Shown: positions 6,163 through 53,780, counted from the first letter of the stretch. The stretch is 54,007 bases of DNA from Candidatus Portnoybacteria bacterium (GCA_016208745.1 JACQXN010000001.1:1-54007), one strand, 5' to 3'. Numbers and translations are program-made. The notes: a model not told the origin generated them from the sequence alone.

Positions 6163-7983
6163 TTATCCTTTTGTTAATTCAATTAGTTGCGTTGACAACT
6201 CTCTAAATTTTTCCAGATATTTTTCCATATTTTTTTTATCCTTTTGGGCTTGGGCTTCCTGGATATCAAAACTTAGTTTCACCATTTTTTCCCTGACTTT
6301 CATAATTTTTAATTCTCTAAGGCATATTTCTATTTCTTCAATAGCGGCCAGCTCATCTGTTGGGTATTGTTCAATCTTTAGCGAGAGATACTCCAGTTTT
6401 ATAACCAGCTCTGGCGTTAGTTTCTTTCTAAGGCTTTCCAAGCAAGAATTTCTTGGTTTTCCCTGAAGCGCGCAAAGCCCGTCAAAAATTTGGGCTAAAT
6501 GCTCATTAAAAAACAGCTTTTGATTGTGGTCAGAATTTTTTAAATGTTCGGGAAAATTTAAGTAAAGGGAGAGCAATTTTTCTTCAAGCTCCTGCGCTCT
6601 TGTTCTTTCCTCTATTTTTTGCGGCGTCTGCACAGTTGTCGCCAGGTTTGAAGAAGGAAGGGAAGCTTTTCTTAACTCGGAATAAAGAATTTTTTCGTCG
6701 GTTTTTAGGCGGCGAGCCATCTCCCCTATCCAATGAGACTGCTCTATCTGGTTAGAAATTTTCTTAATAACCGGCAGAAGGATTCTGGCAATTTGTTTTT
6801 TATCTTCCGGCCGCTCAGATTTAAATTTAGCAAAAGTGCAGTCAAAATAGTAATCAATAATTGGCATGGCTTCCTCTAATGTTTTTTGCCAAGCATCGGG
6901 CTCCTCTTTTATTAAGTCTGCCGGATCTTTTTTGTCTATTTTTATTATTTTTGCGTTGAGATCATTTTCTAGCGCCAAATCAATGCTTCGTTTGGTGGCG
7001 TTTTCTCCGGCCAGATCCATATCAAAAGCAAAAATCAGATTATCAGTATAACGCTTGATAATCTTAAGATGCTCGGCTGTTAGCGCTGTGCCCGAGCTTG
7101 CCACAACATTTTTTACGCCTGCCTGATGCGACATTATCACGTCTAGGTTTCCTTCAACAAGAATGCAGGAGTTTTTTTGCCGCAGATCCATTTTGGCAAA
7201 ATTCAAACCATAGAGCAGGCGGCTTTTATCATATAAAATCGTCTGAGGCGTATTGATATACTTGCCGGCATTTACATCTTCTTTGCCAAAAATCCGGCCG
7301 GCAAAACCGACAATTTGTCCCTGAATATCAAAAATCGGGAACATTATGCGGGAGCGAAAGCGATCATAATAATTTGGAATTTGTGATTTGGAATTTTTTT
7401 GGAAATTGGAAATTGGAAATTGGAAATTTTCATCCCGCTTTACAGCTAGCCCCGTATTAAAAATATCTTCATCGCTATAACCCCGTTCTCCCAGAAAAGC
7501 GCTGAGCGAATGCCATTCATCTGGTGCCCAGCCAAGCCGCCAATCCTTGATTGTTTGCGAGCTAAGCCCTCGTTCGCTTATCAGATATTCATACGCATTT
7601 TGGCCGGATTTTGTTGCTTCTAGCTGTTTTTGAAAAAATTTAGTTGCTAGTTCGCAAATTTCATAAAGCCGTTTCCTTTGGGTCTGGACAGCAGGGTCTT
7701 GTTTTTTCAGCACCACTCCTGCCCGCCGCGCTAAAATTCTTAAAGCGTCGCCAAATTCAACGCCTTCAATCTGTTTGACGAAGGCAAAAATGTCGCCGCC
7801 TGCGCCACAGCCAAAACAATGCCAAATTTGCCGTTCGGGCGAAACCATAAAAGAAGGGGTTTTTTCGGAATGAAAAGGACACGGGGCTCTATAATTTCGC
7901 CCCGCTTTTTGCAGCTTAACATAGGAGCCGACGACCTCAATAACGTCCAGCCGATTTTTTATTTCATCAACAGGCGAAAGCAT
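6163..7983 (-). CDS. dnaG: DNA primase DnaG
   Basis: CHC2 zinc finger '[30 protein letters not shown]'. TOPRIM '[16 protein letters not shown]'. dnaG-rpoD are adjacent (macromolecular synthesis operon). Confidence 0.95.
7401..7428. repeat. Perfect tandem heptanucleotide repeat (ggaaatt)x4 inside dnaG
   Basis: ggaaatt repeated four times. Encodes '..[12 protein letters not shown]..'. The unit is not a multiple of 3. Confidence 0.9.
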
Positions 7984-8374
7984 ATAGATTTAGCTACGGA
8001 ATACGGATAAGTACGGATATACAGATAAAATCAAAAATTCACTTGGGGGCAAGCAATGGTTTATGCGAATTTATCCGTGTCATCCGGGTGCAAATCCGGG
8101 CAATCCGGGTCGCCGTGAAATCACCTCTTAACAGGCATTTTAAGACATTCTTGAATCTTAACGTCTTTTATTTCAGGCCAGCATTCTTTCCCCCATTGCT
8201 CCATATCATAATGGTTCCAAACCCACCAAGCGCCATAAATTATCGCCGCCCAAATCACGAGTTTTAAAAAAATACGCATAAAGATTGTGTTTTTTTAAAT
8301 TATAGCCCTTTTTAGTGTTGGCGTCTACCCTTAAAAACTAAGGCTTTATCTATTATAGATTGCCAGTATATTGG

Positions 8375-9529
8375 CTAATCGCCAAAAATTTGTTGGTTAT
8401 CCGTTGATAGGCGCAGCGCTTCTTTGAGTTTGGGCGAGTCTACAAAATCATTCAAGACGCTATCTTGCTCAGCCAGAGAGATAAAAATACGCGCGTAGGT
8501 TTTATCCGAGCCATGCTGGGAATCGATTAATTCCTCATCTTTGCCCCCAAATTTCTTCATATCAGATAAATCATAAAAATTAAATCCGTAGTGATTAAAT
8601 AAATTTTCCAGTGTGCGGCTTAAGTTATCGGCAACAGCTTTATCCAAACTATCTATTGCCTGAATTTTTTGATACGCAACCAAGGCGTAAGGCGGCATAT
8701 AGCCAATAACAATTATATGGTATTTCTTACAGGCAGTCAGGAAGTCCTCTACGTTTTGCAAAGATTTTGTATCTAGCTCGCTTCCATATTCAAGGTTATT
8801 CTGACCGGGTTTAATCCTTGCGAGTATCTCGTCTATTGAACTTTTTAATATTGTCTGCTTATCGGGATTATTAATAAAATCATTATAATAAAAACTGCCA
8901 TCATTGCGGAATCCGTTTCCATTGGCGATTGCGTTTAAGCCAACTTGCGACATATCTGTTTTGTTTTGGAATACATCAGAGAGGCGAAACTTTTTTTGAA
9001 AATAGTCAAGGTATATCTTTCTCCAGCCATAGATAAAAAATTGTTCCCACGCCGGATCATTGGCCGTTGAGGACCGATGAAGAACAAAAACCTGATTAAT
9101 ATCTGTTGATTCGGGTTTAAAGCCGGGTTTAAACCATCGTTGGTCAGTCCCAAGAATAATAAATTTTGGCCGTTTTTCTGGCGGCAGGCTTTCCAAAAAA
9201 TTTACGAGGTCGCCGGATTCTTTGGCGCCGCCGCCGGCATTATAAAATGTTATTTCGGGGCGAAAAAACTCAGAACGGATATTCATTACCCTTGATGTGC
9301 CAAGAGCTAAAACTTGCGCGCCGCGCAGTTTTGCAGATAAAATTTTAAAATTTTTGTCAACATCGCTATAGGCGCGGCCAAATAAAACCGGACTAGAAGA
9401 TAATTGTTGTTCGGCCACCTTTTTTATGGACATCGCCTCTCCGCTGGACGTAAAAACTAAAAAAGGCAAAAAATATAAAAATGCCAGAGGCAAGCTGAAT
9501 AAAAAGATATTGCGTAAAAACTTTATCAT
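8375..9529 (-). CDS. DltD/AlgJ-like SGNH-fold envelope acyltransferase partner, signal-anchored
   Basis: N-terminal hydrophobic anchor, then 'SSPVLFGRAYSDVD..VLALGTSRVMN..FIILGTDQRWF'. Located directly downstream of the MBOAT gene. Start was placed at the internal Met at 9529; the track ORF start 9622 overlaps the MBOAT gene by 91 nt. Confidence 0.7.
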   Translation of the reverse strand: MIKFLRNIFLFSLPLAFLYFLPFLVFTSSGEAMSIKKVAEQQLSSSPVLFGRAYSDVDKNFKILSAKLRGAQVLALGTSRVMNIRSEFFRPEITFYNAGGGAKESGDLVNFLESLPPEKRPKFIILGTDQRWFKPGFKPESTDINQVFVLHRSSTANDPAWEQFFIYGWRKIYLDYFQKKFRLSDVFQNKTDMSQVGLNAIANGNGFRNDGSFYYNDFINNPDKQTILKSSIDEILARIKPGQNNLEYGSELDTKSLQNVEDFLTACKKYHIIVIGYMPPYALVAYQKIQAIDSLDKAVADNLSRTLENLFNHYGFNFYDLSDMKKFGGKDEELIDSQHGSDKTYARIFISLAEQDSVLNDFVDSPKLKEALRLSTDNQQIFGD

Positions 9530-9531
9530 AT

Positions 9532-11013
9532 CTAGAATTGAAAATAAATGAATGATTTTGCGCCAAGATAGCCAAGCATTAAAATCCATAGAATAACCAA
9601 ATAATAAGCGCCGAGACGCCAAGAAAGCGGCCAGCGAATAATCAAGTTTCTGATGGAGGTTGATTTGGCGGCAGAAAATTCCACGATTTCCATAAACAGG
9701 ATAGCCGCCAGTATTAAAGATAAAAATGCTTTACTAGAACCAATCGTCGCGATTGTCAGGACTTGATAACGCAAAAATTCAAAATCAAAAATTTGCGCTA
9801 AACCCTTAGGCAGGTTGCTAATGATATGCCAGGCATCATTCAATGTTTGGGCGCGGAAAAATACCCAGCTTATACAAACCAGACCAAATGTCGCTGCTAT
9901 CTGCCAGATACGATATATTTTTGGCCATTGTCGGGCGCCAAGCTTTTGCGCCAATTTTTCCCGCCATGTTTTTGTTGCTTGTCCAAAAATCAAATAAAAG
10001 CCATGGGTTGCCCCAAGCATAACAAATGTCCAGTTGGCGCCATGCCATAAACCAATCAAGACAAACGTGATAAACAAAGCCCAATAAAGCCTGACGCGGG
10101 TCTTTTTTTTGGCTGCCAGCGCCAAAGGATAATACATATAATCGCGCAGCCAGCTGGATAATGATATATGCCATCGCCGCCAGAATTCTGTAATTGATCT
10201 GGATGCGTAAGGGCGATCAAAATTTTTCACTAATTCAACTCCCAGCACCCTGGCTGAACCAATCGCGATATCTGAATAGCCGGAAAAATCACAATATAAT
10301 TGATAGGCGAAAAAAACAACGGCCAATAAAATCGCGGCAGAATTTGTCTGATAGAGACCGCCGTAAATTTTATCAACCATCAGCGCTAATTGATCAGCGA
10401 TAACCAATTTTTTAAAAAATCCCCAGAGCATCAATGTCAAGCCATCCATTACCCGTTCGTAATCAAAGCTTTTCTTTTGGTGAAGTTGAGGTAATAAATG
10501 TTGCGGCCGTTCAATCGGACCGGCGACTAACTGCGGGAAAAACATTACGTAGAGCGCATAAATTCCAAGATGTTTTTCTGCCGGATGCTTGCCCCGATAT
10601 ACTTCAATAACGTAACTTAAACTCTGAAAGATATGGAAAGATAAGCCAATGGGCAATATTAATTTTAGGCTTTGGACGGAATAATTCCAGTTGATAACGT
10701 CTGCGAGATAAGAAATATTTTGATTAAAGAAGTTAAAATATTTAAAAACGAGCAAAGTGCCCAAGTTGCCAATAATGCTTAGAATCAGCAAAAGTTTTCG
10801 TTTTTTTCCTTGCTGTTTTTCAATCATCCGCCCCAGAGAATAATCAAGAAGAATCAGAAAAACCAAAACTAAAATATACCAGGGCATAAACGACATATAA
10901 AAATAAGCGCTTGCCAATAACAAAAACACCCACTGATAGCGGCGCGGGATAAGAAAAAACGCAAATATTACTATCGGGAAAAAAATTAAAAAGGCTAGCG
11001 AATTAAAAAGCAT
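9532..11013 (-). CDS. MBOAT-family membrane O-acyltransferase (DltB/AlgI-like)
   Basis: Multi-TM protein. MBOAT His region 'WRRWHISLSSWLRDYMYYPL'. Confidence 0.9.
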   Translation of the reverse strand: MLFNSLAFLIFFPIVIFAFFLIPRRYQWVFLLLASAYFYMSFMPWYILVLVFLILLDYSLGRMIEKQQGKKRKLLLILSIIGNLGTLLVFKYFNFFNQNISYLADVINWNYSVQSLKLILPIGLSFHIFQSLSYVIEVYRGKHPAEKHLGIYALYVMFFPQLVAGPIERPQHLLPQLHQKKSFDYERVMDGLTLMLWGFFKKLVIADQLALMVDKIYGGLYQTNSAAILLAVVFFAYQLYCDFSGYSDIAIGSARVLGVELVKNFDRPYASRSITEFWRRWHISLSSWLRDYMYYPLALAAKKKTRVRLYWALFITFVLIGLWHGANWTFVMLGATHGFYLIFGQATKTWREKLAQKLGARQWPKIYRIWQIAATFGLVCISWVFFRAQTLNDAWHIISNLPKGLAQIFDFEFLRYQVLTIATIGSSKAFLSLILAAILFMEIVEFSAAKSTSIRNLIIRWPLSWRLGAYYLVILWILMLGYLGAKSFIYFQF

Positions 11014-20380: not shown

Positions 20381-20440
20381 GAAATTGGCGGAAGGGGCGG
20401 GTATCCTTCGCTCGTCTAGGCGAGCTTCGGAATACCAATT
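20381..20440. repeat. attL-like direct repeat: degenerate partial copy of tRNA-Ser 3' end (left island boundary)
   Basis: 20382-20402 'aaattggcggaaggggcggg' versus 24383-24403 'aaattggcggaaggagcggg' (20/21 identical, same orientation). Downstream 'gctcgtctaggcgagc' and 'ggaatacc' resemble a decayed anticodon arm and variable arm. Confidence 0.7.
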
Positions 20441-20464
20441 CTTTCTTTGTTTTTTGCGCGCCGC

Positions 20465-22276
20465 CTAACTTTTATCCATTTCTGATTTTAATCTATTTTG
20501 ACTTAAAAACAAAACTTCATTATCGTTTCCATTTTTTCCAATCGCCTGCCAAGGTTGTGTTATATTTCCTTTTCTTCCCGTGTAAAAAACCAAAGAACAA
20601 TCCAGTCGTGGTTTTGTTTCGTTTATATTTTTTATATACCTTTTGTAAAAAGGAATATATTTTATAAAAAATGATCTTATGAAATCGTCAAAATCTCTGA
20701 AAATTTTTGATTCTTCTTCCACCACTCTGTAAATAATATAATCTTTTGCAGCTTCTCTGCTTCTTTCCAAAATTTTTTCTTCCGACTCCAAATCGTTTCC
20801 GAAAATATTTTTTCTGGCATTTAAAACCAACTTCTCAAAGTCCGGCTGATTACATATGTCTTTTCCAATATTTTCTTTAGTTTCTGATAAATGTTTTTCA
20901 AAATCGACTGAATATTTTTCGTAAAGTGTTGATATGGGGATTACCGAAAATAATCCGTTATATTTATCCGCAATGTTGGTCAAAGTTTGAACATATTTCT
21001 CCGTTTTTTCTTTTGGAATTTTATTTACATTTTGCACTCTTCCGTCTCCGGGCGAAACAAAAATTTTCAGACCCGGACTATAAATTTTTACGACTTCTAC
21101 ACTAATTCTTTGTAAATTTTCCAATGTTGCTTCCTCGCATAATTCGGCGTTATCAACCAGTAAATTTGGATTTTTGCAACCGCCCCAAAATTGAAAAAAT
21201 CTAATGGGCAGATTTTTAGAAACTTTTCTTTCTATTTTTTCCAAAACTAACTTTTTCACATCTTCGGGCGGTAACGCACCTGCTCTAAATTTTTTATTAG
21301 TCAAAATTTTATATATTTTCTCGGCCAATTCACTATTTTCTTTTTCTAAAAAATTCCGACTATGTTTATCTCTATCCCTTAACTTTATAAATTTTTCGGA
21401 GGTAATTAAATCGTATAAACTTTTATCTCTAATACTTCCTACTTCATCGGTAATATTTGCGTCAGTATGATAAACATTTCCGAAAATATCTATTTGAGCC
21501 ACAAATTTATACCGCCTTCGGTCAGCTCCAACAATCGGAGAGTCTGGAGTCCATTCATAGCCAAATTGTTTTTTATCAATTTCCGACAACTTTTTATACA
21601 AAACTTCTGTTTTTTCTTTTGGTAATTTCATTTCTTCCTTCGCTCGTCCAGTTATAGTTGCTATTTCAATCCAAGGGATTATTCCATTTTTTCGGCAAAA
21701 AATAAATAATTCGGGTATTTCTCGATAATTGTCCTCGCAAATAATGGAATTTAAAGCTAATCTTTTGTCTTTGGCGAATCCTATATCAACCAACATTTTT
21801 ATTTTTTCTAAAAATATTTTTTGCGCTCCTTTTAATCCGACTAATTTGTCATTTATTTCGGGATTGAAAGAATTCAGCTTAACCATTAAATTCACATCTC
21901 TTTCATTCAACCATTCCGCAAGTTCTTTGCTTAAAAGCAAGCTGTTTGTAAATAAAACTACTCTTAAATCCAGACTTTTTATAAAATCAATCAACTCTTT
22001 CAGGTTTCTATACAATAAAGGTTCCCCGCTTCCAGTTATGCTTACGACTTTTATTCCCAAATCTTTTGCTTGCTTAATGTTGTTTTTTATTTCATCTAAA
22101 GATAGTTTTGTTTTGTTGTTTTCTCTTTTTTCACTAATAAAGGGAGCATTACTTAGACAATAAACACACTTGAGATTACATTCCTCAATTACATGTATTC
22201 TTAATTCCAATAAAAGATTATTATTTTCAAAATCTTTTTCGGAAAAATCAATCGCTTTCAGAAATGGTGGTTTCAT
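20465..22276 (-). CDS. Radical SAM enzyme (MoaA/viperin-like CxxxCxxC core) fused to a ~300-aa C-terminal domain of unknown function
   Basis: 'IEECNLKCVYCLSNAPF' (Cx3Cx2C). 'VVSITGSGEPLL' SAM-binding GGE-like motif. No recognisable family in the C-terminal half. Very AT-rich gene. Confidence 0.8.
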   Translation of the reverse strand: MKPPFLKAIDFSEKDFENNNLLLELRIHVIEECNLKCVYCLSNAPFISEKRENNKTKLSLDEIKNNIKQAKDLGIKVVSITGSGEPLLYRNLKELIDFIKSLDLRVVLFTNSLLLSKELAEWLNERDVNLMVKLNSFNPEINDKLVGLKGAQKIFLEKIKMLVDIGFAKDKRLALNSIICEDNYREIPELFIFCRKNGIIPWIEIATITGRAKEEMKLPKEKTEVLYKKLSEIDKKQFGYEWTPDSPIVGADRRRYKFVAQIDIFGNVYHTDANITDEVGSIRDKSLYDLITSEKFIKLRDRDKHSRNFLEKENSELAEKIYKILTNKKFRAGALPPEDVKKLVLEKIERKVSKNLPIRFFQFWGGCKNPNLLVDNAELCEEATLENLQRISVEVVKIYSPGLKIFVSPGDGRVQNVNKIPKEKTEKYVQTLTNIADKYNGLFSVIPISTLYEKYSVDFEKHLSETKENIGKDICNQPDFEKLVLNARKNIFGNDLESEEKILERSREAAKDYIIYRVVEEESKIFRDFDDFIRSFFIKYIPFYKRYIKNINETKPRLDCSLVFYTGRKGNITQPWQAIGKNGNDNEVLFLSQNRLKSEMDKS

Positions 22277-22488
22277 AGTTTAATCAGTTCGTCCAGGGAA
22301 ATGTCTAAGGCCTTGGCGATTTTTGCCATAACAAAAACTGATGGCTTTTTAATTACTCCTGTTTCAACTTTAGTTAATGTCGTATAAGGAACATCTGCCT
22401 TTCTTGCAAAATCGTCTTGTGAAAGTTCCAGTTTTTGCCGAAGTGATTTTATTTTTTTCCCCAATTTATTGTCTTGACTACTTTCCAT
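22273..22488 (-). CDS. XRE-family helix-turn-helix transcriptional regulator
   Basis: 'KLGKKIKSLRQKLELSQDDFARKADVPYTTLTKVETG'. The stop overlaps the radical-SAM start by 4 nt. Confidence 0.85.
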   Translation of the reverse strand: MESSQDNKLGKKIKSLRQKLELSQDDFARKADVPYTTLTKVETGVIKKPSVFVMAKIAKALDISLDELIKL

Positions 22489-22569
22489 AATTTGATAACA
22501 TTAAATTGTTCTGCTATAATTCCATACAGTTATATGCTAACAAATTTTTATGTTTTAAGCAAGCGAATT

Positions 22570-22760
22570 TTAGGGAGTACATCTGTTGTGTGCGCACGGG
22601 AGGGCGGGGCAAACACAACTTCCTTTCTGGCGGCGCATTTCGCAAAGCGAAATACGAAAAATTGCGGCGGCGAAAAAAGAAGCGGCGAAAGCGAGGGCGG
22701 GCAAAAATTCCTTCCCCCCAACCCCCTTCCTTTTTGCCCGCCCGAGCGGAAAAGTTTTTA
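22570..22760. other. GC- and purine-rich, stop-codon-poor structured non-coding region (candidate recombination site or ncRNA)
   Basis: Nested hairpins 'gttgtgtg..cacaac', 'catttcgcaaagcgaaat', and a 13-bp stem 'gggcgggcaaaaa..tttttgcccgccc'. Three 'ggcggcg' repeats. Open in 5 reading frames. Confidence 0.5.
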
Positions 22761-22865
22761 TCAAAATTTGCAATCCGGATTTTCGTCAAAAAAATCAACC
22801 AATCTTTTTTCTTTCGTCTCTGGCGAAAGGTAAAGAGATAATTTAATTTTGACTGCCCAAATAAT

Positions 22866-24482
22866 ATGACAAACGAAAATCAAACCAAGAAGTTTTTTAT
22901 CTACGCCCGCAAGTCAACAGACAGCGAAGACAGGCAAATTCGCAGTATTGCCGATCAACTTGCTGAATTGCGAGAGCTAGCGAGAAAAGAAAACATTGAT
23001 GTTGTTGATACTTTGGTAGAAAAGCAAACTGCGAAAAAGCCCGGACGGCCTGTCTTCGCTGAAATGTTAAAAAGAATTGAAGCGGGCGAAGCCGAGGGAA
23101 TTTTAGCGTGGCACCCCGATAGATTGGCGAGAAATTCCGTTGACGGCGGACAAATCATTTATCTTGTGGATACCGGAATAATCAAAGAGCTAAAATTCCC
23201 AACTTTTTGGTTTGATCCAACTCCGCAAGGCAAATTTATGCTTTCAATCGCTTTCGGGCAGTCAAAATACTACATTGATAATCTTTCGGAAAATATCAAA
23301 AGAGGACATCGGCAAAAATTGAAAAACGGTTTATGGCCTCAAATGGCTCCGCTTGGTTATCTCAACAACAAAGAGACAAAACAGATTTATGTGGACAAAG
23401 AAAAATCACAGCTTATTAAAAAGGCATTTGAGGCCTACGCGAGTGGAAAAAATACGCTTAAAGAAATCCGAAAGATTATCAATGATCTCGGCTTGAAAGG
23501 GCGGCGAGGTTCTTTGCTTTCTGTTTCCAATTATCAATATCTTTTACAAAATCCTTTTTACTATGGATTGATAAGGTATAACGGCGAATATTTTGAAGGA
23601 AAGCACGAACCGATTATTTCAAAGAAACTTTTTGACGAAACGCAAGAAGTGATGAAAAGAAAATCTAAACCACAAAAATCAGATGAGATGAAATTTTTTC
23701 TTTACAGAGGATTTTTCCGTTGCGGGGAATGTGGATTTACCATAACGGCGGATAAAAAGATAAAACCGAGCGGGAAAGAATACATCTACTATTACTGCAC
23801 CAAGAAAAATCCAAACCACATCTGCTCGCAAAATGTTTTTACCAGAGAAGAAAAAATTTCATCTCAAATCAACGAAGCCATACAAAAAGTCTCTTTGCCC
23901 GATGATTGGGCTGATAAAATGCTGAACGAATTAGAAAAAGAGAAAAACGAGAAAGCCCAATCATCTCGCTTTTTTGCTCAAAAAATTCAAGACGAAATAA
24001 AAACGATTGACGAAAAGCTGGAAAAACTGATGAACGCTTATCTTGAAAACGCCTTAAACCTTGCCGAATATCGGGAAGCCAAAAACAAACTCGTCAATCA
24101 AAAACAGCTTTTGAAAGACAAACTGACAGCTTTTGAGCAAAAAAGCAATAATCGGTTCGAACTCGCCGCCAAATTCATAAACTCCGTAAAACAAGCCGAA
24201 ATTATCGCTTTGCAAGAAAATCCCGAACAGGGTCGGGATTTTCTAAAAAAGATTGGTTCGAACTTCCGTTTGAGCGGGCAGAAATTGTTTTTGGATTTCA
24301 AAAATCCCTTCAAAATCCTCACGGAAGCCGAGCCCCGCCTCTGGCGGGGCGAGGCAACAATCGCCCAAAAGTCGCAATCTGAAAATTGGCGGAAGGAGCG
24401 GGATTCGAACCCGCGATACCTTGCGGTATACTCGCTTTCCAAGCGAGCGCACTCGGCCTCTATGCGACCCTTCCTGAATTAG
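22866..24482 (+). CDS. Large serine recombinase (resolvase catalytic domain + recombinase domain + zinc ribbon)
   Basis: Catalytic 'FFIYARKSTDSEDRQ' (Ser nucleophile), 'GILAWHPDRLARN'. Zinc ribbon 'FFRCGECGF..YYYCTKK'. The last ~32 codons run antisense through tRNA-Ser, so the true stop may be earlier or the overlap is real. Confidence 0.85.
   Translation: MTNENQTKKFFIYARKSTDSEDRQIRSIADQLAELRELARKENIDVVDTLVEKQTAKKPGRPVFAEMLKRIEAGEAEGILAWHPDRLARNSVDGGQIIYLVDTGIIKELKFPTFWFDPTPQGKFMLSIAFGQSKYYIDNLSENIKRGHRQKLKNGLWPQMAPLGYLNNKETKQIYVDKEKSQLIKKAFEAYASGKNTLKEIRKIINDLGLKGRRGSLLSVSNYQYLLQNPFYYGLIRYNGEYFEGKHEPIISKKLFDETQEVMKRKSKPQKSDEMKFFLYRGFFRCGECGFTITADKKIKPSGKEYIYYYCTKKNPNHICSQNVFTREEKISSQINEAIQKVSLPDDWADKMLNELEKEKNEKAQSSRFFAQKIQDEIKTIDEKLEKLMNAYLENALNLAEYREAKNKLVNQKQLLKDKLTAFEQKSNNRFELAAKFINSVKQAEIIALQENPEQGRDFLKKIGSNFRLSGQKLFLDFKNPFKILTEAEPRLWRGEATIAQKSQSENWRKERDSNPRYLAVYSLSKRAHSASMRPFLN
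24387..24474 (-). tRNA. tRNA-Ser (anticodon GGA), type II with long variable arm, CCA encoded
   Basis: Acceptor GGAAGGG/TCCTTCC. Anticodon stem CTCGC/GCGAG with loop TTGGAAA. Variable arm ATACC-GCAA-GGTAT. T-arm GCGGGTTCGAATCCCGC. Ends GCCA. Confidence 0.85.
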
Positions 24483-24729
24483 AAAATAGGTATTTTATTC
24501 TTTCCCTTCCCTTCCCCGTTTTTAAAAACCTTTCTTCCTTTAACGAATCTCTTTTTAATGTGAACGCTTCATAATATACTAATAACCAAGGAATGCCTTT
24601 TGATGTATAGGGTGATTTACCATTATTGTGATAAATTAACCGCTGGCGAAGATCATTGGTGCTACCGATATATCTTTTATTTAATTTTTTACTAAATAAA
24701 ATATAGACGTAATACATAATTCTGTACAC
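24460..24729 (-). CDS. Small GIY-YIG domain nuclease (second copy of the family)
   Basis: 'YYVYILFSKKLNKRYIGSTNDLRQRLIYHN..WLLVYYEAFTLKRDSLKEERFLKTGKGR'. The 3' end overlaps the tRNA-Ser 5' end by ~12 nt. Confidence 0.7.
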   Translation of the reverse strand: MYRIMYYVYILFSKKLNKRYIGSTNDLRQRLIYHNNGKSPYTSKGIPWLLVYYEAFTLKRDSLKEERFLKTGKGRERIKYLFSNSGRVA

Positions 24730-24778
24730 CCCCGCCCGAGGTGTGATCGGCCTCCCCGCCCGAGGCGGGTGCGCCTTG

Positions 24779-24798
24779 GGCGCATATGCGACCCTTCC
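24779..24798. repeat. Partial duplicate of tRNA-Ser 5' end
   Basis: 'ggcgcatatgcgacccttcct' versus the tRNA 5' region 24455-24476 'ggcctctatgcgacccttcct'. Flanks the GIY-YIG gene on the side opposite the intact tRNA. Confidence 0.6.
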
Positions 24799-24802
24799 TA
24801 AT

Positions 24803-26385: not shown

Positions 26386-26736
26386 TTAAATCTCATTGCG
26401 TATTTTCTCAACAACGTTATCTATATTTCTCAGGACGTCCAGATTGGTGAATCGTAATATCCGTAATCCTAAATTTTTCAAATACAAGTCTCTTTTTCTG
26501 TCCGCAACTATATTTTTTGTTTCGTAATGTTGTCCGCCGTCAATTTCAATAACTAATTTTGCTCTATCACAATAGAAATCAACAATATAATTATCTATTG
26601 GCTTTTGTCTGTTGAATAAACAATCCTTGATTTGCCTTTTTCTTATCTTTGACCAAAGTAACTTTTCGGCGTCAGTCAACCTCGACCTCAAGTCTCTACT
26701 TTTCGATTTTAGATAAGACACGTATCTTAAAGGCAT
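26386..26736 (-). CDS. DUF559 endonuclease-domain protein (Vsr/restriction-endonuclease-like fold)
   Basis: 'EKLLWSKIRKRQ..FNRQKPIDNYIVDFYCDRAKLVIEIDGGQHYE..DRKRDLYLKNLGLRILRF'. Confidence 0.75.
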   Translation of the reverse strand: MPLRYVSYLKSKSRDLRSRLTDAEKLLWSKIRKRQIKDCLFNRQKPIDNYIVDFYCDRAKLVIEIDGGQHYETKNIVADRKRDLYLKNLGLRILRFTNLDVLRNIDNVVEKIRNEI

Positions 26737-53568: not shown

Positions 53569-53652
53569 GGGCGAGTGGCGGAACTGGCAGACGCGCACGG
53601 TTCAGGGCCGTGTGGTAGTAATACCATGGAGGTTCAAGTCCTCTCTCGCCCA
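53569..53652 (+). tRNA. tRNA-Leu (anticodon CAG), type II
   Basis: Acceptor GGGCGAG/CTCGCCC. Anticodon stem CACGG/CCGTG with loop TTCAGGG. Long variable arm TGGTA..TACCA. T-arm GGAGGTTCAAGTCCTCT. Discriminator A; CCA not encoded. Confidence 0.8.
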
Positions 53653-53780
53653 CAACATTAACTAAACTAAAAGTTAAAAATGAAAAACTAAAAATTTAGG
53701 TATCAAAATTTTTAAATTTTGATAAATTTTAGATTTACCTTGTCGTTTTTCCTTTTTCAATTTTACTTTTTAAATTTTAT

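Follow-up and report, generated by a model that had tools for sequence, protein, structure and literature searches.

A probable small integrative element with a large serine recombinase at the 3' end of tRNA-Ser in Candidatus Portnoybacteria

We analyzed a stretch of 54,007 nt from Candidatus Portnoybacteria bacterium (GCA_016208745.1 JACQXN010000001.1:1-54007; the whole stretch is called the window below) that contains a gene for a large serine recombinase (gene int, product Int) running into a tRNA-Ser(GGA) gene on the opposite strand. From a comparison with relatives and with contigs of a sister strain, it is highly probable that window positions 20457-24392 are an integrated, partly deleted copy of a small element inserted by Int at the 3' ends of tRNA-Ser genes. 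A preliminary description of the same DNA had proposed a tRNA-targeting integrative element with accessory cargo, bounded by a direct repeat of the tRNA 3' end. The kind of element has strong comparative support, whereas its anatomy, that is, the borders and the attachment sites, differs from what was proposed.

In the mechanism that we propose, attP would consist of a P arm, the core GCGG and a P' arm, the P arm being the last ~130 nt of int. Int would recombine attP with attB, which is made up of the acceptor/T-arm end of the tRNA gene (B') and the native downstream flank (X), and integration would yield attR (int 3' end, GCGG, tRNA) and attL (X, GCGG, P'). The int frame would continue past the core, through the antisense strand of the tRNA when joined to the tRNA gene, and into a P'-encoded tail (...NWRCLLVKIRTFFDENPD) in the attP configuration. 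The cargo would lie between two inverted extended P' arms, and in the window it would be a lower-GC, independently mobile cassette of an XRE regulator gene and a radical-SAM/isonitrile-synthase-like gene. The anatomy of the element, its association with tRNA genes, its sites and the junctions in the sister strain are described below as they stand in the DNA; Int is the presumed catalyst.

tRNA association and attachment sites

Of the 544 encoded relatives of the recombinase that a genome scan found in GTDB species genomes, we compared the 80 best loci. The sequence downstream of the recombinase gene is present in 67/80, and the tRNA counts refer to these 67. An opposite-strand tRNA gene abuts or overlaps the 3' end of int in 60/67 loci (56 Ser, 4 Gln), and the tRNA-Ser genes carry the anticodons GGA, CGA, TGA and GCT, with two odd calls of ACT. 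These two calls, made by ARAGORN beside int in L055 and L067, would be tRNA-Ser genes with an anticodon that is unusual for bacteria. The closest relatives of Int, with 87-95% identity, come from Falkowbacteria, Yanofskybacteria, Komeilibacteria, Saccharibacteria, Staskawiczbacteria and a TA06 bin, and a protein search with the recombinase returned thousands of relatives, many of them 85-94% identical. The nucleotide similarity of the closest relatives to the window is limited to 22582-24485, their flanks being unrelated, and several genomes have two copies at different tRNA-Ser genes. The tRNA linkage, the identity across classes, the unrelated flanks and the multiple copies therefore indicate a horizontally moving site-specific element.

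The five delimited relatives have 2-6 kb between attL and int, and no primase, helicase or polymerase was found in them or in the window element. The cargo of related elements includes restriction-modification genes, an AAA_15 ATPase (which also matches the model AAA_21, putative AbiEii toxin), a trypsin-like protein and unknown genes. This content bears on whether the window holds the remnant of a temperate Patescibacteria phage that has lost its structural genes. Large serine recombinases are typical phage integrases, and an IMG/VR relative with 59% identity (L087) adjoins genes for an amidase, a LysM protein and an SU10 adaptor protein. However, delimited close relatives contain no phage genes and have restriction-modification, ATPase or unknown genes instead, and the closest integrases of cultured phages are ≤28% identical, which makes a phage remnant extremely unlikely.

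The attachment sites of the small element were delineated by aligning the relatives with the window. At the window junction 22794/22795 relatives carry ~190 nt more, in which the P' arm and the core are combined with the final ~134 nt of int (window 24259-24392) in inverted orientation. In this segment, the inverted copy of the int end is joined via CCGC/GCGG to a conserved arm, GTTCGGATTTTAACCAAAAGGCA, which is P', and the two together make up a complete attP-like site in inverted orientation. P' is present a second time, on the opposite strand, in L007, L012, L014, L020 and L041, at a distance of 2-6 kb further upstream, and in L032, where it immediately precedes int. This copy is joined via the same core to AT-rich or terminator-like host sequence, as expected for attL. 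GCGG is the sole sequence common to attR, attL and the inverted attP, and since nothing else is common to all three, we place the putative crossover within it (24389-24392). The terminal CA of the CCA of tRNA-Ser(GGA) comes from the element side of this core. Serine recombinases exchange strands at a short core without a long duplication, and attP and attB of the present element share only the short core, as in large serine recombinases. The arms also have a regular geometry. In 39/39 P' arms, including those of a distant clade and of the tRNA-Gln clade, the distance between the core and a TTCGAA-like motif is exactly 16 nt, and the TTCGAA of the tRNA T-loop lies 11 nt from the core. This 5-bp difference matches, for the P'/B' pair only, the attP/attB rule described for the integrase of the A118 family (Listeria phage), in which the zinc-ribbon motif is shifted 5 bp inward in attB compared with attP (Rutherford et al., PMC3783163).

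Short Logan contigs of the same strain, from the runs SRR12113398, SRR12113404 and SRR12113405, were retrieved by exact protein look-up and are 99.95-100% identical to the window; the XRE protein matched two contigs only, and the same look-up with the recombinase protein gave no record. Contigs L003 and L004 are 100% identical to the left flank of the window up to 20456, then contain 43 nt of X (AATCCTCCGTTAAAACTTCGGAGTTGC..., with a terminator-like hairpin), and then 30 nt of core and P'. This X-core-P' junction is attL, and it predicts a native site ...CGGAGGATT GCGG AAGGAGCGGG..., together with a predicted empty-site junction ...CGGAGGATTGCGGAAGGAGCGGG... and a predicted circle junction ...CTGAAAATTGGCGGTGCCTTTTGG... 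In all, the sister contigs hold ~227 nt more at 20456/20457, namely X, the core, the P' arm, an inverted extended P' arm and a 13-nt hairpin. L005 and L006 contain the XRE/radical-SAM cassette and, past the radical-SAM stop, the 13-nt hairpin, after which window 22654-22683 (30 nt) appears inverted, and L001 ends 30 nt into the P arm, at 24363. Contig overhangs of 30 nt correspond to k-1 if the Logan assemblies used k = 31, as we assume; the 30-nt breaks would then be repeat boundaries, and the sister strain would have both inverted repeats.

The window itself has no P' motif anywhere, and attL and the inverted attP copy are absent from the contig, so that only attR, int, one extended P' arm (with the P' end missing) and the cassette are left. 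We infer that the two missing segments are deletions. Canonical large serine recombinases excise by attL x attR, and because the contig has no attL, the element as assembled is without a partner for this reaction. The window copy is either a doubly deleted (locked) element or a mis-assembled contig.

The direct repeat that had been taken as the border of the island is real. It is a 20-mer (AAATTGGCGGAAGGNGCGGG) present as AAATTGGCGGAAGGGGCGGG at 20382-20401 and as AAATTGGCGGAAGGAGCGGG at 24383-24402, in the same orientation and with 19/20 identical nucleotides; the window contains no further copy, and in 100 shuffles 0 are expected. It would be natural to read the two copies as attL and attR of a 4-kb island with a tRNA 3'-end duplication, as in tyrosine-integrase islands, since the repeat is non-random and correctly oriented and brackets both the recombinase and the cargo, and the related elements L012, L035 and L054 likewise have tRNA 3'-end fragments at their far side. 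We consider this reading unlikely. The only recombinase in the segment is a serine recombinase, with no tyrosine integrase, and the attL of the sister strain, with its P' arm, lies ~97 nt inside the left copy, which makes the left copy host DNA. Among relatives, the tRNA-end repeat occurs upstream within 10 kb in only 3/29 loci tested and is therefore not a general border of these elements. Nor could the left copy be followed into a decayed tRNA, as had been proposed: it has at most 16 tRNA-derived bases, past which the alignment is non-collinear, and a search with the tRNA model gave no match at E <= 10 and thus no displaced tRNA part. By the features used for Islander islands, int does adjoin an intact tRNA-Ser(GGA), whereas no displaced tRNA fragment forms the far end point, the 16-nt fragment being present but outside the att exchange. 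The left copy is probably a fossil or secondary attB-like fragment.

Several observations weigh against an element inserted by Int with the anatomy described here. None of the three Logan run assemblies of this strain contains the junctions 20456/20457 and 22794/22795, and the deleted state of the window copy may be an assembly error. For the half-sites P and X, compared by eye, we found no convincing matching motif geometry, and 7/67 loci have no recognisable tRNA at the int 3' end. tRNA 3'-end fragments of 16-21 nt recur near the elements. In the window and in L012 they lie beyond attL, and in L012 the native flank is repeated exactly after the fragment; in L035 and L054 they lie upstream of int. 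A serine-recombinase crossover does not produce such fragments; they may be fossil or duplicated attB sites. Finally, neither an empty tRNA-Ser site nor a circular junction was recovered for the Portnoybacteria host: the native flank X joined to the core had no exact match in JGI metagenomes, a protein scan with the right-flank glycosyltransferase gave one match of 31%, the homologue search with it gave none above 42% except the contig itself, and the Logan contigs of the strain contain the occupied state only. The JGI metagenomes and the protein collection thus yielded no close relative of the host. Mobility in the host lineage is therefore deduced from the other lineages.

The recombinase and its C-terminal tail

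The large serine recombinase of the preliminary description was recovered in a profile search, with Resolvase, Recombinase and Zn_ribbon_recom domains in the open reading frame (ORF) 22866-24482. The Resolvase domain (PF00239, E 4.2e-20) covers residues 11-156, with a Y-A-R-K-S motif at residues 13-17, and is followed by PF07508 at residues 179-265 (E 1.6e-16) and PF13408 at residues 279-339 (E 1.7e-9). The best solved relative is the A118 integrase, whose C-terminal domain matches residues 173-421 (E 3.6e-10). The best NCBIfam matches are far below the cut-offs (CcrB, 120 bits vs 900; XisF, 111 vs 375), and no recombinase with more than 28% identity was found in cultured phages and plasmids. 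The enzyme classifies as a large serine recombinase by all sequence criteria tested. In the leader of the gene (22795-22865), a hairpin (TTTCGCC-loop-GGCGAAA) keeps its stem and varies in its loop among elements, and it may be regulatory.

The preliminary description had pointed out that the recombinase ORF stays open across the whole antisense tRNA, and we found the same. The conservation among homologues ends at ...ENWR (~residue 509), and the last 29 residues of the window protein are antisense tRNA. The C-terminal tails of the homologues fall into two classes, one tRNA-antisense (..DSNPR.., from the T-arm) and one P'-encoded (NWRCLLVKIRTFFDENPD and variants). Because the int gene runs through the presumed attP, the sequence adjoining the P arm would determine the C-terminus. 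The tail of 29 residues, and with it the ORF across the tRNA, would be a by-product of integration, attP being in the 3' end of int. No recombination directionality factor is evident in the elements.

Inverted attP copies and cargo

An inverted copy of the P arm lies upstream of int in about 50/55 testable loci, so that int is bracketed by inverted repeats of ~126 nt. The two P copies within an element have a median identity of 99%, compared with 58% between elements, a pattern that points to concerted evolution. In the relatives, the cargo is located between inverted extended P' arms, and many contigs end <500 nt upstream of int, which fits unresolved inverted repeats. The two arms are joined to different partners, in all four combinations. 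Most loci have P' upstream and the tRNA downstream of int, while the arrangement is the opposite in L097 (in L019, whose contig ends within int, the tRNA is likewise upstream), L096 has P' at both arms, and L023 and L067 have tRNA genes at both arms. In L035 the upstream arm adjoins no more than an inverted fragment of a tRNA 3' end. In L023 (1-2050; GCT, GGA) and L067 (9770-11580; GGA, 'ACT'), int lies between two tRNA-Ser genes whose 3' ends face int. In these two loci each P arm seems to have undergone recombination with a tRNA gene, for instance via a chromosomal inversion.

The same inverted repeats raise the question of whether the recombinase is a resident invertase that flips the DNA between them beside tRNA-Ser (phase variation), with the tRNA linkage inherited vertically. 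The repeats around int in about 50/55 loci and their 99% identity within elements vs 58% between elements would fit such an enzyme, as would the existence of both int orientations relative to the tRNA (L097 and L019 vs the majority) and the bracketing of the cargo by inverted extended P' arms, with frequent contig breaks there. We nevertheless consider a resident invertase very unlikely. Identities of up to 95% across classes, unrelated flanks, the occurrence at all tRNA-Ser isoacceptors and at tRNA-Gln, and multiple copies per genome speak for movement from host to host; there are attL junctions with host flanks; and the 59% relative adjoins phage genes. Inversion may well be an additional activity, which is compatible with Int being an integrase.

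Under integration by Int, the inverted copy can be read as a second, active attP, for which int inversion, cassette exchange and chromosomal inversion between tRNA-Ser genes are candidate roles. We tentatively extend this to the family, as a possibility on which we place somewhat less than even confidence: it would be a two-attP element able to flip int, to flip or exchange cargo and to invert the chromosome between tRNA-Ser genes, the P' tail vs the tRNA-antisense tail might set directionality without a separate factor, and the window copy would be a derivative that lost both P' sites.

The island had been described as AT-rich, with strikingly AT-rich radical-SAM and XRE genes; this holds for one part of it. 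The contig background in sliding windows of 1812 nt is 39.6% GC (mean; sd 2.6), and the radical-SAM gene, with 30.6% GC, is the lowest 1812-nt window of the whole contig, with a GC content at third codon positions (GC3) of 25% vs 38 +/- 6. The 2.2-kb XRE/radical-SAM cassette has 30.6% GC vs 39.6% and is the sole AT-rich part of the island; the recombinase gene (39.5%) is host-like, and the XRE gene has 35%. The compositional shift expected by the preliminary description is thus present in GC and GC3 and confined to the cassette, which is foreign in composition. The two cargo genes it had named, for an XRE regulator and a radical-SAM fusion protein, were both found between the repeat copies on the minus strand.

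The cassette has the same end points (20453-22651) in the Logan contigs and in the Moranbacteria locus L089, with 84.6% nucleotide identity to the latter. In L089, which lacks a recombinase gene, it adjoins a tRNA-Pro gene, and a P'-like arm at the far end again shows the 16-nt geometry. L089 appears to be an int-less derivative of a relative that targets tRNA-Pro. At 7457-10065 of this locus, the tRNA-Pro end and flank are repeated directly over 17 nt on either side of the cassette (CGACCAGGTYARACATT). By its shared end points, the cassette is an independent module with its own boundaries. Right after the radical-SAM stop there is a hairpin, GCCAAT-TTT-ATTGGC vs GCCAAC-TTC-GTTGGC (L005 2186-2210; L089 9815-9840; missing in the window at 20456/20457). 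It is apparently a conserved structure of the cassette end, in which a compensatory change keeps the stem.

The radical-SAM protein has a CxxxCxxC motif at residues 33-40, a Radical_SAM domain and a weak match to the DIT1_PvcA domain. In its AlphaFold model (mean pLDDT 82), the N-terminal half matches radical-SAM enzymes and the C-terminal half matches the isonitrile synthases PIsnA and PvcA (E 4e-10, target TM-scores 0.61-0.66). The cargo protein is thus predicted to be a radical-SAM domain fused to an isonitrile-synthase (PvcA/IsnA) fold, and no description of radical-SAM/PvcA fusions was found in the searched literature. It has only 28 relatives, all of those with a source name being from Patescibacteria. 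A viperin-type defence protein (pVip) was tried and rejected: the PADLOC pVip model covers the generic radical-SAM core only (residues 26-189), MoaA-type models score higher, all are far below the cut-offs, and the fold of the C-terminal half is that of PvcA/IsnA. The cassette may plausibly serve an accessory or defensive function.

The GC-rich, structured non-coding segment noted earlier was also confirmed, with 51% GC at 22582-22794, a 13-bp stem at 22695-22743 and a DNA fold z of -2.35. Its reading as a structured RNA gene was dropped, as the spacer occurs as inverted DNA pairs and differs between elements; no known RNA family matched in this spacer or in the left repeat region.

Neighbouring features and known systems

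The coordinates of the features are collected in Table 1, for which the tRNA genes in the 54,007-nt window were called with ARAGORN and Rfam; the tRNA-Ser(GGA) of the preliminary description was recovered.

Table 1. Features of the element and its borders in window coordinates.
Feature	Position	Strand	Basis or remark
Left copy of the direct repeat	20382-20401	-	16 nt like the tRNA-Ser 3' end, plus AATTT
Hairpin adjoining the left repeat copy, GGTATCC...GGAATACC	20400-20436	-	Not a tRNA remnant by model search
XRE + radical-SAM cassette, discrete module	20453-22651	-	End points common to Logan contigs and Moranbacteria L089
Junction where the window parts from the sister-strain contigs	20456/20457		Contig comparison
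Radical-SAM/isonitrile-synthase-like fusion gene, 603 aa	20465-22276	-	Domain and fold matches
XRE-type helix-turn-helix regulator gene, 71 aa; overlaps the radical-SAM gene start by 4 nt	22273-22488	-	
Non-coding stretch	22489-22865		GC-rich core 22582-22794
GC-rich spacer, read as extended P' arm	22653-22794	+	Occurs as an inverted pair in relatives
Junction without ~190 nt that relatives carry	22794/22795		Alignment to relatives
Recombinase gene leader, conserved	22795-22865	+	Alignment to relatives; hairpin TTTCGTC...GGCGAAA
Large serine recombinase (int) ORF, 538 aa	22866-24482	+	Pfam domains
P arm of the attachment site, inside the int 3' end	24259-24388	+	Inverted second copy in relatives
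tRNA-Ser(GGA), intact	24387-24474	-	ARAGORN; Rfam tRNA model, 52 bits
Common core GCGG, in the tRNA acceptor end (...CCGC/CA)	24389-24392		Common to attR, attL and inverted attP

Other features lie close to the element. A GIY-YIG gene (24460-24729, minus strand) is located directly 5' of tRNA-Ser, with its last codons and stop inside the acceptor stem. It lies in an insert of ~310 nt, on either side of which the tRNA 5' end is directly repeated over 15 nt (24461-24475 and 24785-24799; 34 nt at 76%), and in the Moranbacteria locus L092 a GIY-YIG gene (355-615) overlaps the 5' end of a tRNA-Pro (595-668) in a like manner. The insert (window 24460-24799) looks like a small homing-type insertion at tRNA 5' ends. 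A DUF559 gene (Vsr-like endonuclease fold; 26386-26736, minus strand) lies 2 kb from the island, and ARAGORN called a tRNA-Leu(CAG) at 53569-53653 that is unlisted in the Rfam gathering-threshold scan of the whole window.

Among known systems, the element resembles those of the A118/LI, Bxb1 and phiC31 integrases in the three-domain architecture with a presumably coiled-coil-rich C-terminal region, in the short core and in the hybrid attL and attR without a long duplication. It differs from them in having ≤28% identity to any cultured-phage integrase and a tRNA 3' end as the target, in the location of the putative attP inside the int 3' end, with a C-terminus that would change with the recombination state, and in its relatives, which have a second, inverted attP of ~300 bp, a size of 2-7 kb and no phage genes. 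Islander tRNA islands (PMC4383910) and the tycheposons of Prochlorococcus are likewise small cargo elements with a site-specific integrase by a specific tRNA, tRNA fragments nearby and variable adaptive or defensive cargo. Those elements, however, overwhelmingly use a tyrosine integrase and are bounded by a duplicated tRNA segment, whereas here the core is 4 nt and the repeat lies outside the element; tycheposons often have a replication module and occur in marine cyanobacteria, whereas the present elements have none and occur in Patescibacteria hosts. A large serine recombinase in place of the tyrosine recombinase is carried by 27/937 tycheposon elements (bioRxiv 10.1101/2020.12.28.424599).

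The recombinases CcrA/B/C of SCCmec and XisF, large serine recombinases that mobilise or excise cassettes of the chromosome, are the best NCBIfam matches, and they, too, target the 3' end of a conserved host gene when inserting a cargo cassette. With matches below the cut-offs, Int is not a member of these families, and the element differs in its target (tRNA-Ser, not rlmH), its single recombinase and its inverted att copies. The Hin, Gin and Cin invertases share with it a recombinase gene with inverted repeats and the occurrence of both segment orientations among relatives. These invertases are small serine recombinases that act at 26-bp sites with the help of a Fis-dependent enhancer, and they do not move from one tRNA gene to another, whereas here a large serine recombinase is accompanied by repeats of 120-300 bp that include part of its gene. 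Our search of the literature found no paper on serine-recombinase elements at tRNA-Ser in Patescibacteria, on an inverted attP or on a tail switch.

Patescibacteria have tiny genomes, and to our knowledge few mobile elements have been described in them. Hundreds of species-level genomes contain the recombinase clade, which seems to provide a main route for exchanging accessory cassettes, those for restriction-modification included. These elements appear to have a conserved second attP in inverted orientation and a C-terminus that depends on the recombination state, both of which would be unusual for serine integrases. As the attachment sites can be read from sequence, with attB corresponding to the ~50-bp 3' end of tRNA-Ser, the recombinase is a candidate integration tool for organisms that are hard to manipulate.

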